DNA of 64,000 nucleotides from Candidatus Firestoneibacteriota bacterium (GTDB lineage: Bacteria > Oederibacteriota > D2-FULL-39-29 > JBBTED01): positions 1 through 64,000 of the forward strand of contig JBBTED010000067.1 in NCBI GenBank assembly GCA_038042445.1, given 5' to 3'. Each line of letters begins with the position of its first letter. Within the stretch, counting starts at the first letter, position 1. Positions 27,001 through 33,000 of the stretch are shown here, one piece after another. A program made the position numbers.

Positions 27001-30000
27001 ATTATCATGGACAGGCGAGGCAAATTATACTTCAGATGGAATAAATCCAGAAATAGGAAACACAAGTTCAACATTTATATACAGGATTAAATATACCGAT
27101 ACTGATAATGATGCACCGGCGAGTGGGTATCCAAAGGTGCATATTAAGAAAGCAGGAGTTGAAATAAGCGGTAGTCCATTTACAATGAGTTATGTAAGTG
27201 GAAGTTATAGCACAGGAGCAATTTATACATATTCTAAAACATTAAGTTCTTTGGGAACTGACTACACATATTATTTTGAAGCGCAGGATGTGTGGAATGA
27301 AGTAGCAACAGGCACGCCAACAATCGCTGTTGATTCTCCTGATGTCAATAATGCTCCTGCATTATCTTGGACCGGTGAGACAAATTATGTATCTGACGGG
27401 TTAGATCCGCATACAGGAAATACAGCAATAACATTTACATACAGAGTGAAGTATACGGATGCTGATGCTTTAGCAAGTGGATATCCAAAAGTTCATATTA
27501 AAAAAGCAGGAAGTGAAATATCTGGTAGTCCATTCACAATGACTTATGTAAGTGGAACATATTCAGGCGGAGCGATTTACACTTATTCTAAAATACTTTC
27601 TACCGTTGGAATTGACTATACATATTATTTTGAGGCACAGGATGTATATAACGAAGTAGCAACTGGAATACCAACAACATCAGTAGATGCTCCTGATGTT
27701 TCTGCTATTCCTCTTATTTCTCCAAATACAGCACCCATTTTTTCCTGGACAGGTGAAACAAATTATACGGCTAATGGGATTTATCCTACTTTAGGAAATG
27801 CGAGTACTACTTTTGTTTTTAGGGTGAAATATACGGATGCAGATAATGATGCTCCTGCATCAGGATATCCTAAATTGTATATTAAAAAAGGTGGTGTAGA
27901 AATTTCTGGTAGTCCGTTTGCTATGGTGACAGTAGATAGTAGTTTGTATTCAGCAGGTCCAATTTATACTTATTCTACGGTTTTAACTAAATCAGGTGCT
28001 GATTATACTTATTATTTTGAGGCGAAAGATGTATTAAATGGTCTTGCAACAGGAATACCTACAAATCCTTTTGATGCACCTGATGTTAATGTAATTCAGG
28101 CAAATCAAGATACCAATATAGTAAGTGAAGACGGAACCAGTATTGATATTCCAAAGGATACACTAAATCCAGGAGTTGCAATTAACATCACTATTCCTTC
28201 TGTTATTCCTGAAGGAGAAGTCCAAAATGCAGGATATTCAGTTAAGCAGACAAATATAACAAGAGAAATAACTACATCAGATGGGAGTAAAAATTTTAAT
28301 AAGGAAATAAAAATATCTATTCCATTTAAAGATTCTGATGTTGCTGGAATAAATAAACAAAACCTGAAATTATTCTATTATTCTGAAGAAAGGAAAATGT
28401 GGATTTTAATTCCATCTGCTGTAGTTGATACTAATAAAAATACAATTTCTATATTAGTTACACATTTGACAATTTTTAGGATAATGGCACTTGAGCCAAC
28501 ATCAGCAGTATTAGTTTTATATAACAATTTGTTTGACCCTGCAAATAATGAAAAATTATATGTTCGTTATGATATTGTGCAAGAAGTAGATGTTACAGTT
28601 ACTGTGTATAGCATCAAGGGGCAAAAGATAAAAGAATTATTTAATGGTAGAAAAACTGCTGGTAGTTACACTGATTTAACCTGGGATGGCAAGAATGAAG
28701 ATGGAGAGGTTGTAGCAAGTGGTATTTATGTTGTGTATATTTCTGCAGGGGATTTTAGAGATAAGAAAAAAGTGGTGGTGGTGAAATGAGAGAAAAATGG
28801 ATTCCCGCTTTCGCGGGAATGACAGAATGTAGTGGAAATTCTCGCAGGCTAAAGCCTGCGGCTACAACTACATTGTTTGTAATGATGATTTTTATTTTGC
28901 CTGTTTTGTGTAATGCAGGGGTGGGAACAACTGGGGGTGTGTTTCTTGAGGATTCTGTAGGTGCAAGACCTTATGGTATGGGTTCTGCATTTTCTGCTAT
29001 TGCTGATGATGCAAATAGTATCTATTCAAATCCTGCTGGTTTTCATTATCTTGCCTATCCTGAAATAACAACAATGTATAATAAAGCATTGATGGATACT
29101 TCATTAAGTTATATTGGGTATATTCATCCTTATGAAAATATCGGAACTTTTTCCGGGTCATTTTTATTATTTGATGGTGGAGATATAGAGCTGAATTATT
29201 TAGATAGCACAAGTGAAAAAGTGAAGGCAGGCCAGGATTGGGCCGTAACTTTAGGATATGGCAGATCTATAGGGAATTCAGAAATATTTTTTGGTGGGGC
29301 TAATATAAAATTGGTACGTAGCACATTGGTAAATAAATATTCTGCAATAGCAATAGCGATGGATGCAGGATTGTTGTATCGCACAATTGATAATAAGCTT
29401 TCAATTAGTTTAGCATTTCAAAATTTAGGTACGAAGTTGAAATATAAAAATATAGGTGATTCTCTTCCTTTTACTTCTAAATTTGGAGTTGCCTATAGAA
29501 TTTTAGAGCTTGAAGGACATTCAGTATTACTTGCAGGAGATTTTTCTCTTAATTTTGTAAAGAAAAATATTGGAGTTGAATATTGGGTAATGCAAATGTT
29601 CGCATTAAGACTTGGTGCAAAATTGGGATATAATCCAAATAGCTATACTATGGGTTTCGGGATAAATGTTTTTTCTGATACAAAATTGGATTATGGATAT
29701 TCTCCAATGATAGATGAAACAACGCATAGGATTTCGTTATCATTTAAGTTTGGTTCACAGGATAAAATTACACTTGCTGATAAATACGAAGAAAAAGGAA
29801 TGTATGCACGTGCGCAATATATCCGCAATCCAGATGATTATATGTACGCAAAGGCAAATACAATAAAAGAAAAAGATGGATTTATACCTATTATAACATC
29901 AATAGAGCCAAAGAAAGCAGGTCCGGGAACGGAAATTAAAATATTCGGAGAAAAATTTGGGAAATATAGCAATGTAACAATAGGAGATGTTTTTGCAGAG

Positions 30001-33000
30001 GTTATAAAATCAGAAGAAAAAAGAATAATAGCGAAAGTGCCGAATATAAAAGCTGGAGAATCAGAAGTAGTTGTGCAGACAGACAAAGGGGTTTCACTTT
30101 CAAAAACATTATCAGTGATGCCATCAAAACCAGCAATGCTTGAAGTTTCAGAAATAACATTTAAAGATGAGAATCAAGATAATATTTTGGGAGCAGAGGA
30201 AACCGGAAACATAATAATAACAGTTAAAAATCAGAAGGGTGCTGGAGAGTCGTTTGGAGTGAAGGTTAAACCAGTGTGTACTTCAGCAAAGAATGATCTG
30301 TTTTTTGATAATGAAATAAATATAGGAAATATTGGTTCTGGAGAAGAGAGAAAAGTTGAAATTCCAGTTAAAGCTGGATTAGATTTAACAACAGGCAAAG
30401 CGAGTTTTAAATTGAGTTTTACTGAAGCGAATGAATATAATCCAGATCCAGTGAACATAACATTTGATACACATAAATTAGAGCCGCCTGATATAGAATT
30501 AGCGAAATTTGAGATAGACGATGGAATGTATCCATACAATCCGGAAAAATTAGCATCAGGAAATAACAATGGAATACTTGAACCCGGAGAACAAGTTGAA
30601 ATAAACGCAGTTATTGTAAACAAGGGAACAGGTCCAACAAAGAATGGAGTTGTAAAAGTTATTTGTTCTGATCCTAAAATCAATATTTCAAGTTTAAGTC
30701 AGAGTTTAGAGTTTGATTTAGGTAGTATAGAGCCGGAAAAATGGAAAGAAATAAAGTTTGCGATAGAAGTTAAAAAACAATATAAGGGTGAACAGAATCT
30801 GCCTGTAAAACTACAGTTCAGTGAAGCAAGAAAAATGTTTAACAAGGATTTGGCAATGAACATAGGATTAGGCAGGGTGTATGCAAAAACACAAGATGTT
30901 GTTATAAAAGGAAAATCGTTTGATATTGCTATTCCAACAATTACTTCTTTCGGAGATGATTTAATTAACATACCTGCTTATGCAACAACAGAAAAGAAGA
31001 ATGCTTATGCAGTAGTGGTCGGAATAGAAAAATACAGGGATGTGGTGTCAGCGGAATATGCGGCAAAGGACGCACAGTCAATAAGAGATTATTTAATTAG
31101 CGCAATGAAATTTAAAGAAGAGAATATTAGATTTGCTCTAAACGAAAGAGCAAGCAGGAATGATTTAATCAGATATTTCAATGTGGAGTTAAAGAACAAT
31201 GTTGAAAAGGATTCTTTGGTGTTTGTATATTATTCCGGGCATGGTGCCCCGGATGCAACAACAGGCGATACATACATCGTTCCTTATGACGGAGACCCGA
31301 ATACAATAAAAGACAGCGGGTATTCGTTAAAGCAGTTGTATGAGGTATTAAGCAAACTACCAACTAATAAAATATTGGTTGTGATAGACGCGTGTTTCAG
31401 CGGTGCAGGCGGAACAAGAACGCTTTTAGCAAAAGGAGCAAGACCATTAGTAGTGAGTAAGGATACAGATACCGGGAATGCGATAGCAATCACAGCAACA
31501 GGAGCAGGACAAATAAGCGGGACTTATGACGAGAAACAACACGGGTTATTTACATATTATTTTTTGAAAGGTATTCAGGGTGAAGCGGATATAAACAAAG
31601 ACAAGGAAATAATGTTAAGCGAGTTGTATGGATATTTAAAGCCAGAGGTTATAAGGAAAGCAAGAAAAGACAACAGGGACCAGGAACCGCAGATATTGCC
31701 ATCAGTTAATCAGATAGGTGAGTTTGAAAAATTACCATTAGCAATATTAAAATGAGAAATAAAACGGTTTTGTCATTGCGAGTGAAACGAAGTAATCTTG
31801 GGATTTATCTAGTATTTTTTCTTGTTGTTGTTTTTTGTGGGTGTGCTACGACACCAAAGTCAAAACCGGATTTAAAAGATAAATCCGATAAACTTTTTCA
31901 GGAACTTGGAAAAGAAGAAACTCCGGATATTCAACAGAATAAAGAAATGAAACAGATGGAAAAGGAGTTGGATAAAACGCCCAATAAATCAGACCAAACA
32001 GTAGAACAAGCGTCTCGCTTGTCAGAACAACAGCCATCAATGGTAGGACAGCCGTCTCGGCTGTCAGAAGAAATTTCTTTTGAAGAAACAGGTGAAGGGT
32101 TCGCGTCAAAATACGAACGGAGAATAGAAGCAGAAAAACGTGCAGAGGAGAATGCTTTATCAAAAGCGCTAAAGAAAATAGGCACAGATGTTTTTGACAG
32201 TTTCAGCGATGCAATGGCTCAATCCGGAAAAACACAGTATCAGTTCGTTGCGAAATGTCTTTATATCGGCACAAGCGGATTAGTGTCTTATGAAAGAACT
32301 GGAGAGCCGATTTTTACAGAAGAGACAAATGGAACAAAGTGCGTTCTTAAAATAAAAGGCACGGTTTATTCAAAAGGTAAGCCAGACCCTTCTTATGGGG
32401 TTAAAATAGATAAGAATTCCGGGATGGATAAACTGATTTATAATTCCGGGGATGAAGTCCAACTAAAATTTTCTGTTACAAAGGATTCACATATAACTAT
32501 TTTAAATATTGATGAGGAAAAGAACGTTTATCTGATTTATCCAAATAAGTTTGTTAAGGGAAATATACTGAAAGCAGGAGAAAGTTTTGAAATACCGGGT
32601 AACTTGGGAATAAAAATGCAGGCAGTATTACAGGAAGGAAAGAGCGAAACAGTTGAATTACTATACATAATCGCAACAAAAACCAATTCGTTGTTTTTAT
32701 CTGAGGATAGCAAAGAGATTCTTTTATCAACAGATTACACATTGTTTTCAATCGGAGAATTTAAAAGGGCTATGGAACGGATTGGAAAACTTAATCGTGA
32801 TGAGTGGACAATGATTGTTTTGCCATATACGATAGTAAAAGGTAAATAGTTTATAGAATATGTTATGCTGAATTCATTTCAGCATCTGTAGGGGTGGATT
32901 TATCCGACCAGATATTGTAGTTGTTTTGTAGTTGCCGACTTTGGTTGGCAAAGGAGGAAAAGAAAATGGGAAAAGGTAATGTAGTCGCTCAATTTATTGA

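Follow-up and report, generated by a model that had tools for sequence, protein, structure and literature searches.

A PorV-family outer-membrane barrel joined to a caspase-like protease: a candidate cargo-dedicated carrier in an uncultured groundwater bacterium

Introduction

A gene of an uncultured groundwater bacterium encodes an outer-membrane barrel of the PorV family and a caspase-like peptidase in one chain, directly behind a gene for a cargo protein with a C-terminal sorting domain (CTD). In the T9SS, the extracellular loops of PorV are described as binding type A CTDs inside SprA (PMC10994853), and the sortase PorU as a cysteine peptidase linked to the PorV barrel and to CTD cargo (PMC9143113). 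The locus raises the question of which side of the outer membrane the caspase occupies and whether it acts on the cargo. The component parts are known, while no earlier description exists of the barrel-caspase fusion or of the conserved genes that accompany it. The window is the whole stretch of DNA analysed, 64,000 nucleotides in length, and the features of the locus are listed in Table 1.

Table 1. Positions of the cassette genes and of the parts of the barrel-caspase protein, counted along the window
Feature	Position	Strand	Details
Cargo gene, 907-aa ORF	26066..28789	+	Signal peptide a few codons in; N-terminal ~40-aa repeats, three ~110-aa repeats, C-terminal sorting domain
Cargo CTD, type A-like / FlgD_ig-like	28427..28786	+	TIGR04183 27.0 against a cut-off of 23 bits (120-aa tail); FlgD_ig 35.2 against 27
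Barrel-caspase ORF	28786-31755	+	989 aa
Two GC-rich hairpins between cargo stop and likely barrel-gene start	28794..28862	+	Fold z -4.08
Probable true start and signal peptide, MMIFILPVLCNA	28882..28917	+	Relatives start here in alignment; hairpin repeats upstream
PorV-family outer-membrane barrel, aa 48-322	28927..29751	+	N-terminal plug region with NPAG motif and 14 main strands; profile, model, fold matches
Conserved helical TPR-like linker, aa 327-364, motif KYEEKGMYARAQY	29764..29877	+	Alignment; model with four helices of 10, 8, 8 and 5 residues
IPT/TIG Ig-like domain, aa 368-444	29887..30117	+	Pfam, model
Two CARDB-like beta-sandwich domains, aa 446-695	30121..30870	+	C-part model strands at model residues 7-118 and 125-245; PF07705 on relatives
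Caspase-like C14 domain, aa 735-989	30988..31752	+	Pfam, alignments, model, fold matches
His819 codon	31240-31242	+	In C14 domain
Cys870 codon	31393-31395	+	In C14 domain
Partner lipoprotein	31752..32849	+	Lipobox, ~75-aa low-complexity linker, LPP20/FlgT_N-like domain, DUF4384 (32439-32684)
Second conserved lipoprotein, LPP20-like	32921..33523	+	43-45% identical orthologues in the same place in L038 and L121

Results

The encoded protein (g01290) consists, in order, of a signal peptide, a 14-strand PorV-family barrel, a short helical linker, a TIG domain, two CARDB-like sandwiches and a C14 caspase domain. On the 989-aa ORF, Pfam reports TIG at aa 368-439 (E 2.7e-9) and Peptidase_C14 at aa 741-970 (E 9.4e-15, 55.4 bits against a cut-off of 21.4), with PorV and UPF0164 both below their own cut-offs. 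The barrel is matched by the PorV/PorQ family NF033709 over model positions 1-326 of 326 (aa 48-322, 154.4 bits against a cut-off of 90, E 5.3e-45); it scores below the cut-off of the PorV equivalog model (52.5 against 250 bits), and TIGR03519 (PorP) gives no match to the gene. When the family profile is compared with solved structures, PorV alone is matched (6h3i_F, E 1.7e-38, over almost the full length); TodX follows at E 0.8.

AF2 models the N-terminal part (aa 33-451) with pLDDT 93.0 and pTM 0.82 and places 14 main strands at aa 93-321. The top folds for this model are those of PorV (6h3i_F, TM 0.69; 8gl6_F, TM 0.65), with FadL lower at ~0.52, and a gap of only 5 residues separates the last modelled strand from the broken helical linker. 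The C-terminal part (aa 446-989) is modelled with pLDDT 89.5. The ORF, the NF033709 and Pfam matches and these confident models bear out the domain reading of the initial annotation, a PorV barrel with TIG/Ig domains and a C14 caspase; its strand assignment stands, while the low confidence of the model then available is superseded. The fusion itself is real, the junction near 29854 being spanned by contigs from three studies.

Codons 1-32 of the ORF are the translation of the two intergenic GC-rich hairpins, which are copies of a repeat common to many organisms; depth in the bin that includes this hairpin region (28682-28828) spikes to 387-4860, against ~2-20 in adjacent bins. Because relatives begin at ATG 28882 and the codons upstream of it are hairpin repeats, this ATG is the likely start, giving the predicted N-terminus MMIFILPVLCNA.

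The caspase domain keeps His819 and Cys870 without exception in the alignment of relatives (11 of 11 sequences) and in a wider set (71 of 71), as had been claimed from fewer relatives. The modelled domain matches the folds of MALT1 (3v4o_A, TM 0.68), GSU0716 (3bij, TM 0.63) and also metacaspases; its sequence matches solved structures only weakly (best E 4.4e-4). The loop at aa 874-889 is disordered in the model and holds a conserved Lys884. With its invariant dyad and this fold, the protease is intact and active-looking, and it is probably of the metacaspase type directed at Arg/Lys, a family that PMC6426788 describes as cleaving after basic residues. It is the sole caspase of the genome.

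The gene belongs to a conserved cassette in the order CTD cargo, barrel-caspase, DUF4384 lipoprotein and LPP20-like lipoprotein, with a signal peptide or lipobox in every member. The cargo gene precedes the barrel-caspase gene in all three loci with context, though the passenger parts differ. The partner lipoprotein may start at GTG 31782; its DUF4384 is present in a single copy in the genome, side by side with the single caspase. The L121 orthologue of the second lipoprotein has a weak LPP20 match.

Full-length relatives number eight, seven at 45-54% identity (P0005-P0011) and one at 37% (P0013), and P0012 and P0014 carry an additional TPR insert. Conservation of the fusion, previously asserted from six relatives at 45-54%, is upheld with this larger count. 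Among the 40 relatives' genomes of the phylum that were searched, G010 alone has an orthologue, and there two lipoprotein paralogues of the TIG-CARDB-caspase part adjoin the barrel form. A signal-peptide-like start is present in 62 of 70 relatives of the module. A gene resembling the partner lipoprotein (P0003-like) follows within 900 bp in 22 of the 64 caspase loci with room for it, in several phyla; only roughly one in three related caspase loci has the DUF4384 partner behind it. Nitrospirota and Desulfobacterota loci commonly encode the caspase/DUF4384 pair as lipoproteins, with no barrel of this type. The pair would be a portable periplasmic module, elsewhere anchored by lipid or other domains and here grafted onto a probable cargo carrier.

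The genome holds 23 near-full-length PorV-like barrels, 12 above the cut-off and 11 sub-threshold, which supports the proposed expansion in this lineage and replaces the earlier figure of about 19. Fourteen lie behind a CTD cargo gene on the same strand, in keeping with the statement that most adjoin such genes; two are second barrels after such a pair, three are at contig edges and four have no cargo gene. The cargo tails of 13 of the 14 pairs pass the type A model and the remaining one passes type B, and tails that also match the type B model are paired with more PorP-like barrels. Sequence identity among the barrels correlates with that among the CTDs (Mantel r 0.87, reached by none of 5000 permutations), a signal that comes partly from two recent duplications. 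Co-duplication alone would yield a Mantel signal of this kind.

Tails are found on 10 barrels of the genome (caspase, CsgG/LpoB-like, LysM or TPR), all of them C-terminal to the barrel, and the caspase is on one of the 23. Domain matches were recovered for each paralogous fusion named in the initial annotation: CsgG (31.7 against 20.8 bits) and LpoB (22.4 against 22.3) on contig C170 (g02634), LysM at aa 491-539 (28.9 against 20.9 bits) on C163 (g02554), and TPR at aa 382-578 on C112 (g01925), where it comes after the barrel (aa 96-357) and not in front of it as had been stated. In the wider family, 38 of the 57 long members have recognisable tails (TPR 19, CsgG/LpoB-like 11, OmpA 4, CarboxypepD_reg 3, TIG 4, caspase 2).

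The helical linker is the last part common to the barrel-caspase and its C170 paralogue, which lacks TIG and diverges right after it, near aa 357. The two cargo-barrel pairs are nearly identical (barrel 89%, CTD 92%), and the C170 pair has a CsgG-like tail, so the caspase is not needed for handling this CTD type. The link of the caspase to the cargo may be loose.

All 41 genomes examined in the phylum have a SprA-like ORF, which in G000 scores below the curated cut-off. PorU above cut-off was found in none of the 41 phylum genomes, compared with all three control genomes, and there is no match to the PorU catalytic region. Models of the T9SS motor component GldM matched nothing, control genomes included.

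Discussion

On balance, we favour the reading that the barrel, of the T9SS PorV/PorP kind, is dedicated to one cargo as its carrier or anchor, with a periplasmic C-terminal tail that bears an active-looking, metacaspase-type and probably Arg/Lys-directed protease. Homology and gene order suggest that the barrel, once exported by Sec and inserted in the outer membrane, would use its extracellular loops to receive the upstream cargo's type A-like CTD on its exit from the SprA-like translocon. The cargo would then stay on the surface, held by the barrel, because no PorU sortase was found that could cut the CTD off.

Both chain ends of the barrel are predicted from the model and the family's other tails to face the periplasm, so that the linker, TIG and the two CARDB-like domains would form a stalk below the outer membrane. 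On strand count and by analogy with those tails, the caspase most likely hangs into the periplasm. The family's tails (TPR, OmpA, carboxypeptidase-regulatory, CsgG-like) are largely the domain kit of PorE, which argues that they are periplasmic. The same placement had been expected in the initial annotation, and it agrees with tails that are C-terminal to a plugged 14-strand barrel and that include OmpA, LysM, LpoB-like and TPR domains. More speculatively, the caspase may work with the DUF4384 and LPP20-like lipoproteins of its operon, the DUF4384 protein being its regulator or substrate, and would probably become active once the loop behind Cys870 is cut. Its most likely role would be regulated proteolysis on the periplasmic side of the outer membrane, coupled to a surface protein and serving signalling or quality control; we do not think that it removes CTDs.

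The barrel could instead serve purely to anchor the protein in the membrane, or be a FadL-like channel, without any part in cargo secretion, in an envelope caspase operon placed beside a secreted-protein gene by chance. PorV-family models also match the control Bacteroides thetaiotaomicron, which is not known to have a T9SS; the motor went undetected, four of the 23 barrels lack a cargo gene, and lipid-anchored paralogues of the caspase part exist. A FadL-like barrel is also described as a BAM subunit in Bacteroidota (PMC12578637). This explanation is nonetheless unlikely, given that 14 barrels follow a same-strand CTD gene, CTD class tracks barrel class, cargo and barrel duplicate together, cargo-then-barrel order is retained in three of three loci despite differing passenger parts, and the best solved relative is PorV rather than FadL.

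It is quite improbable that the protein is a single-chain attachment complex in which a surface clan CD caspase replaces PorU and cuts or transfers cargo CTDs. PorU is likewise a clan CD cysteine peptidase held by PorV, and its absence above cut-off from the phylum, the position of the barrel-caspase gene after a CTD cargo gene and the lack of a second caspase in the genome would fit such a replacement. However, the tail is predicted to exit the barrel on the periplasmic side, relatives carry OmpA, LysM, LpoB-like or TPR domains at the caspase position, 22 of the 23 barrels have no caspase, the C170 pair has a 92% identical CTD without one, and most genomes of the phylum have no orthologue. 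The occurrence of the caspase/DUF4384 pair in other phyla without such barrels also indicates that the caspase is probably no PorU substitute.

Still less probable is a self-exporting, adhesin-like protein in the manner of the inverse autotransporters intimin and invasin, whose barrel would thread the Ig-like domains and a caspase head to the outside. The order of N-terminal barrel, Ig-like repeats and C-terminal head is the same, and intimin carries LysM, as does the C163 paralogue. Yet the barrel has 14 strands and an N-terminal plug, as in PorV/FadL, instead of the 12 of an inverse autotransporter, and the Pfam search of the protein gave no IAT_beta match. The linker consists of a short bundle of broken helices, none of them long enough to span the pore, the C163 LysM occupies the caspase's C-terminal position, where the wall must be reached, and relatives have OmpA tails. 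An intracellular conflict or defence system with the caspase as death effector is hardly credible. It would fit a weak score on the EACC1-associated caspase model (75.4 bits, with the cut-off at 140) and a generic caspase match in PADLOC, but PADLOC gives no further family match, no NTPase or sensor gene is adjacent, and every cassette gene has a signal peptide or lipobox.

Comparison with known systems

Read as a cargo-dedicated carrier with a periplasmic protease tail, the protein shares with Flavobacterium johnsoniae PorV (PDB 6H3I, 8GL6) a homologous 14-strand FadL-type barrel, and its upstream cargo likewise bears a type A-like CTD. It differs in that there is one barrel per cargo instead of a single general PorV, a 660-aa tail, read as periplasmic, follows the barrel, the PorU partner was not found, and the host as labelled is outside Bacteroidota. 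As with PorU, a cysteine peptidase occurs together with a PorV barrel and a CTD-bearing cargo, but the caspase would lie on the opposite side of the membrane and is on one barrel only. OmpA-type and inverse-autotransporter proteins also place an N-terminal barrel before C-terminal domains in a single chain, a likeness of architecture only, as barrel family and strand number differ.

The caspase has the fold of the orthocaspases, metacaspases and paracaspases (C14; MALT1, GSU0716, Arabidopsis MC4/MC9), with the same His/Cys dyad in SGHG and DACFSG and a flexible loop behind the Cys that contains Lys and Arg. Unlike the known enzymes, it would be exported and tethered by a barrel under the outer membrane, with TIG and CARDB-like domains in front.

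In the PorP/SprF-like cognate carriers with PorE (P. gingivalis PorE-PorP-PG1035; F. johnsoniae SprF-SprB and porP-like/porE-like pairs), each cargo gene is likewise described as having a barrel gene of its own behind it; the cargo stays barrel-bound, and a periplasmic protein with TPR, carboxypeptidase-regulatory and OmpA domains binds below the barrel (PMC9143113, PMC12618676). The tails of the present family are drawn from largely the same domains as those that PMC9143113 describes for PorE. Here, however, the barrel scores as PorV/PorQ and its cargo has a type A-like CTD; barrel and presumed periplasmic part form one chain, and one such tail is a protease, which PorE is not.

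The barrel-caspase gene

The fusion of an N-terminal barrel to a C-terminal caspase domain in a single gene is real. Seven relatives at 45-54% identity span 98-100% of the query, P0013 does likewise at 37%, and the relatives P0012 and P0014 carry extra TPR repeats inserted between the barrel and TIG. Orthologues are present in G010, a genome of the same class (48% identity), and in L038, a MAG labelled Elusimicrobia (33%). The point at which the gene diverges from its paralogue on contig C170 (~29854) is bridged by metagenome contigs from runs of three studies with zero differences, which makes a chimeric assembly of the two barrels, 89% identical, unlikely. 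The limited literature searched yielded no account of a PorV-family barrel joined to a caspase or to PorE-like domains.

Codons 1-32 of the ORF are two translated GC-rich hairpins lying between the upstream stop at 28789 and an ATG at 28882, a stretch that folds far better than shuffled versions of itself (z -4.08). Aligned relatives begin at the position equivalent to 28882 with a signal peptide, so the mature protein is taken to begin near aa 45. Pfam assigns TIG to aa 368-439 and Peptidase_C14 to aa 741-970 (55.4 bits; cut-off 21.4). Neither His819 nor Cys870 varies across the full-length sequences (11 of 11) or the relatives of the CARDB-CARDB-caspase module (71 of 71). The tethered caspase thus appears intact and of the metacaspase type, its activity and P1 preference being predicted from the type of motif alone.

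On either side of the gene lie GC-rich palindromic repeats, whose translation gives two ORFs false N-termini (WIPAFAGMT and SLRVKRSNL); the peptide WIPAFAGMT also stands at the start of the L038 orthologue. Depth in metagenome contigs reaches 387-4860 and 49-1011 in the bins holding the repeats, versus ~2-20 alongside, and the repeats are therefore common to many organisms.

Coordinates of the features discussed; positions without a contig name refer to the window
Feature	Position	Strand	Description
Upstream region	22119-26097		MazF-like toxin gene, two XRE-type HTH genes, three AT-rich ORFs without family
ORF in this region	23738-24085		homologue upstream of the C170 copy
AT-rich segment	24001-26000		GC 27%, ahead of the cassette
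Cargo gene	26066-28789		repeat-rich secreted protein
Barrel-caspase ORF	28786-31755	+	989 aa
Palindromic repeat, first	28794-28862		GC-rich
Palindromic repeat, second	~31771-31797		GC-rich
Metagenome contig X2	29525-32200		bridges ~29854, no differences
Metagenome contig X4	29525-29906		bridges ~29854, no differences
Metagenome contig X6	29812-29962		bridges ~29854, no differences
First downstream lipoprotein	31752-32849		long low-complexity linker, LPP20/FlgT_N-like domain, DUF4384
Second downstream lipoprotein	32921-33523		LPP20-like
L017	C42 679-2319		PorP-like barrel with tail
L122	C170 782-3144		genes preceding the C170 copy
L123	C87 4882-12499		SprA-like gene and neighbours
L121	G010:C266 799-16773		three tandem caspase genes

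Predicted structures

The protein was folded by AF2 from deep alignments as two separate parts, aa 33-451 (110 sequences) and aa 446-989 (71 sequences). The model of the N-terminal part (pLDDT 93.0, pTM 0.82) has a plug-like region at its N-terminus, and its 14 main strands lie within aa 93-321. Five residues past the last strand the chain forms four short helices (10, 8, 8 and 5 residues; aa 327-364) and then the Ig-like TIG domain. The closest solved folds are Flavobacterium johnsoniae PorV, 8gl6_F (E 1.5e-14, TM 0.65) and 6h3i_F (TM 0.69, rmsd 3.6), with FadL, TbuX and TodX ranking behind them at TM ~0.5. When a profile of the barrel family is compared with all solved chains, PorV is the sole match (E 1.7e-38), almost end to end, and the PorV chain terminates at the point where the barrel-caspase linker begins. 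The NCBIfam model for the PorV/PorQ family (NF033709) matches aa 48-322 with 154.4 bits against a cut-off of 90, covering model positions 1-326 of 326; the equivalog models remain below their cut-offs (PorV NF033710, 52.5 versus 250 bits; PorQ, 85.6 versus 220). The gene is not among the 12 weak matches in this genome to the PorP/SprF model TIGR03519, the best of which scores 44.8 against 90.55. The barrel is genuinely related to PorV.

The C-terminal part (pLDDT 89.5) is modelled as two beta-sandwiches, a disordered connector at aa 704-720 and an alpha/beta domain with a disordered loop at aa 874-889 immediately after Cys870. Its closest folds are the MALT1 paracaspase 3v4o_A (TM 0.68) and Geobacter GSU0716 (TM 0.63), then caspases and metacaspases. 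By sequence, the match of this part to solved metacaspases is only weak (E 4.4e-4), and searching solved structures with the single sequence of the C-terminal half gives no match at E 0.01.

Self-export of the caspase was weighed as one role for the barrel. An inverse autotransporter (type Ve), which has a 12-strand barrel with the linker passing through the pore, was rejected as a model, because the barrel here is plugged and has 14 strands, the linker is short, broken and helical, and Pfam gives no IAT match in the protein at E 0.01.

The four-gene cassette and the caspase module

The cargo gene adjoins the barrel gene, as is asked of a PorP/SprF carrier, and does so in L038 and G010 as well. 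The last 120 residues of the cargo score 27.0 bits on the type A sorting-domain model (cut-off 23) and also pass FlgD_ig. The order of cargo, barrel-caspase, DUF4384 lipoprotein and LPP20-like lipoprotein is identical in G010 and L038, and housekeeping genes lie beyond 33523. At the G010 locus L121, the three tandem caspase genes comprise one barrel-anchored form and two lipid-anchored TIG-CARDB-caspase paralogues, with a 208-aa ORF between caspase genes; the locus also encodes a WD40 Ser/Thr kinase with a signal peptide, a WD40 protein and another three small lipoproteins, of which two are LPP20-like.

More than 100 relatives join the CARDB-CARDB-caspase part to a different N-terminal part (TPR, WD40, ankyrin, PDZ-S41, PEGA, CsgG-like, LysM and thioredoxin). 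A signal-peptide-like start is found in 62 of 70 module relatives, with lipoproteins among the examples. A gene resembling the DUF4384 partner lipoprotein is present in 26 of the 74 loci fetched with a caspase; of the 64 loci with enough room, 22 have it on the caspase strand, at most 900 bp downstream. Loci holding both genes come from, among others, MAGs labelled Nitrospira, delta-proteobacterial and Elusimicrobia. The genome under study has one caspase and one DUF4384 gene, which are adjacent.

The region ahead of the cassette may be a mobile island. The copy of the barrel locus on C170 is likewise preceded by an XRE gene and by a homologue of one ORF of this region, and the duplication therefore exceeds cargo and barrel.

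Cargo pairing and barrel tails

The genome (2.81 Mb, 181 contigs, 90% complete) has 26 matches to the PorV-family model, 12 of them above cut-off and 23 near full length. By inspection, 14 of these 23 barrels lie behind a gene ending in a sorting domain, one of the pairs having a small ORF between; two are a second barrel behind such a pair, three lie at a contig edge and four have other neighbours. Thirteen of the 14 cargo tails pass the type A model and the other one passes type B (41.6 versus 35). Those passing type A pair with PorV-like barrels; tails that match type B as well belong with barrels of a more PorP-like kind, which score weakly on PorP/SprF. That several tails score on both models suggests intermediates between the type A and type B classes.

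Barrel identity and tail identity are correlated (Mantel r 0.87, 0 of 5000 permutations), much of this being carried by two recent duplications, and co-duplication alone would be enough to explain the correlation. Across genomes, the sorting domain of the G010 cargo is about equally near to three of those in the present genome (0.38-0.39), and the nearest to that of L038 is not the one at the caspase locus.

C-terminal tails are present on 10 of the 23 barrels: caspase on one, CsgG/LpoB-like on three (C170, C42 and C155), LysM on one (C163), TPR clearly on one (C112) and weakly on one (C142), and coiled or unassigned on three. The initial annotation had TPR preceding the barrel on C112, where it actually follows. 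The pair on C170 arose by recent duplication of the caspase locus (barrel 89% and sorting domain 92% identical), and the duplicated stretch takes in upstream genes. Past the linker, identity ends near aa 357, and TIG-CARDB-caspase gives way to a CsgG/LpoB-like domain; tails have thus been swapped as cassettes behind a constant barrel-plus-linker. On C42, FlgT_C comes behind the CsgG/LpoB-like domain of the PorP-like barrel with 25.1 bits, short of its cut-off of 27, giving a FlgT-like periplasmic tail beneath a cargo barrel.

A search of the barrel against 1.84 billion cluster representatives returns 10,257 matches at E 0.001 and 4,237 at 1e-10, and the barrel is N-terminal in every one of the best 150 of the 10,257. 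Of the 146 new proteins obtained from this search, 66 are longer than 360 aa. Among 57 proteins longer than 400 aa, 38 have recognizable tails: TPR (19), CsgG/LpoB/FlgO/TolB_N-like (11), OmpA (4), TIG (4), CarboxypepD_reg (3), caspase (2), PEGA (1) and DUF2914 (1). OmpA, LysM and LpoB-like domains work in the periplasm, which places the tail position there, and by this analogy the caspase tail, too, most probably extends into the periplasm. As described in PMC9143113, PorE partners the PorP barrel in the periplasm and binds peptidoglycan, its domains are TPR, beta-propeller, carboxypeptidase-regulatory-like and OmpA_C-like, and six porP-like genes of F. johnsoniae adjoin porE-like genes. The tail domains largely match this kit, and the fused tails therefore resemble PorE in cis.

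Secretion-system context

Many PorV-like barrels are present in each of 41 genomes sampled from the phylum. Each also has one SprA-like ORF (1720-2334 aa), which exceeds the cut-off in four of the 41 when its pieces are summed. In the present genome, the candidate for SprA/Sov is one 1742-aa ORF with five partial matches (110, 76, 37, 26 and 19 bits), each under the 200-bit cut-off. Immediately upstream of this gene is an ABC transporter pair (ATPase, 251 aa; permease, 563 aa); PorV-like and motor genes are not located with it.

A PorU sortase above cut-off is found in 0 of the 41 genomes, which give two weak partial catalytic matches only, and the PorU matches in the genome under study are to the sorting-domain part only. 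In the controls, three of three FCB genomes give one PorU each at 657-946 bits. The GldM models (TIGR03517 and PF12081) are silent in this genome and equally in three control genomes having PorU, and GldK gives generic partial matches only.

Discussion

Besides self-export, three other roles were weighed for the caspase. The barrel could be a mere anchor for a module that elsewhere follows many other N-terminal parts, lipid-anchored forms included. As a surface sortase, the caspase would stand in for PorU; it is probably not such a substitute, since its pairing with DUF4384 is independent of such barrels, it is present on just one of the 23, the twin locus on C170 has nearly the same sorting domain and no caspase, and lipid-anchored copies exist. 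For a defence system, PADLOC returns a generic caspase match only. The favoured role, offered as speculation, would be regulated proteolysis beneath the outer membrane, in which the DUF4384 protein would act either as a regulator or as a substrate.

The barrel stands in the same position relative to its cargo as cognate carriers of the PorP/SprF type (PMC12618676, PMC10994853). With a sortase apparently lacking, the cargo would remain bound to the barrel, like type B cargo. If the tail is periplasmic and the barrel binds the sorting domain, the protein would physically couple a protein on the cell surface to proteolysis in the periplasm. A joint reading, which we consider rather unlikely as a whole, is that the phylum has a pared-down pathway of the T9SS kind without PorU, in which each type A-like or type B-like cargo would have its own PorV/PorP-type barrel, PorE-type adaptor functions would be supplied in cis, and the caspase form of the carrier would be wired to a portable periplasmic caspase/DUF4384 switch converting the state of a surface protein into periplasmic cleavage. 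Were it true, it would be a new signalling route across the outer membrane.

The fused tails point to periplasmic functions that belong under such barrels. The caspase with its conserved DUF4384 partner would place a widespread but unstudied family, the exported bacterial caspases, at a defined location beneath a surface protein, on the inner side of the outer membrane, and the compact four-gene cassette is tractable for testing their function.

Carrier barrels, PorE bridges and bacterial caspases are each already known. To our knowledge, cargo-specific carrier barrels and the PorP-PorE cell-wall bridge are recent findings, from Bacteroidota only. New here are the single-chain fusion, the per-cargo PorV-type barrels for type A-like sorting domains, the apparent absence of PorU and the conserved four-gene cassette, none of which was found described in the limited literature searched. 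Compared with the known systems, the carrier-plus-adaptor logic takes the form here of single fused proteins, in a different phylum that is uncultured and apparently lacks the sortase.
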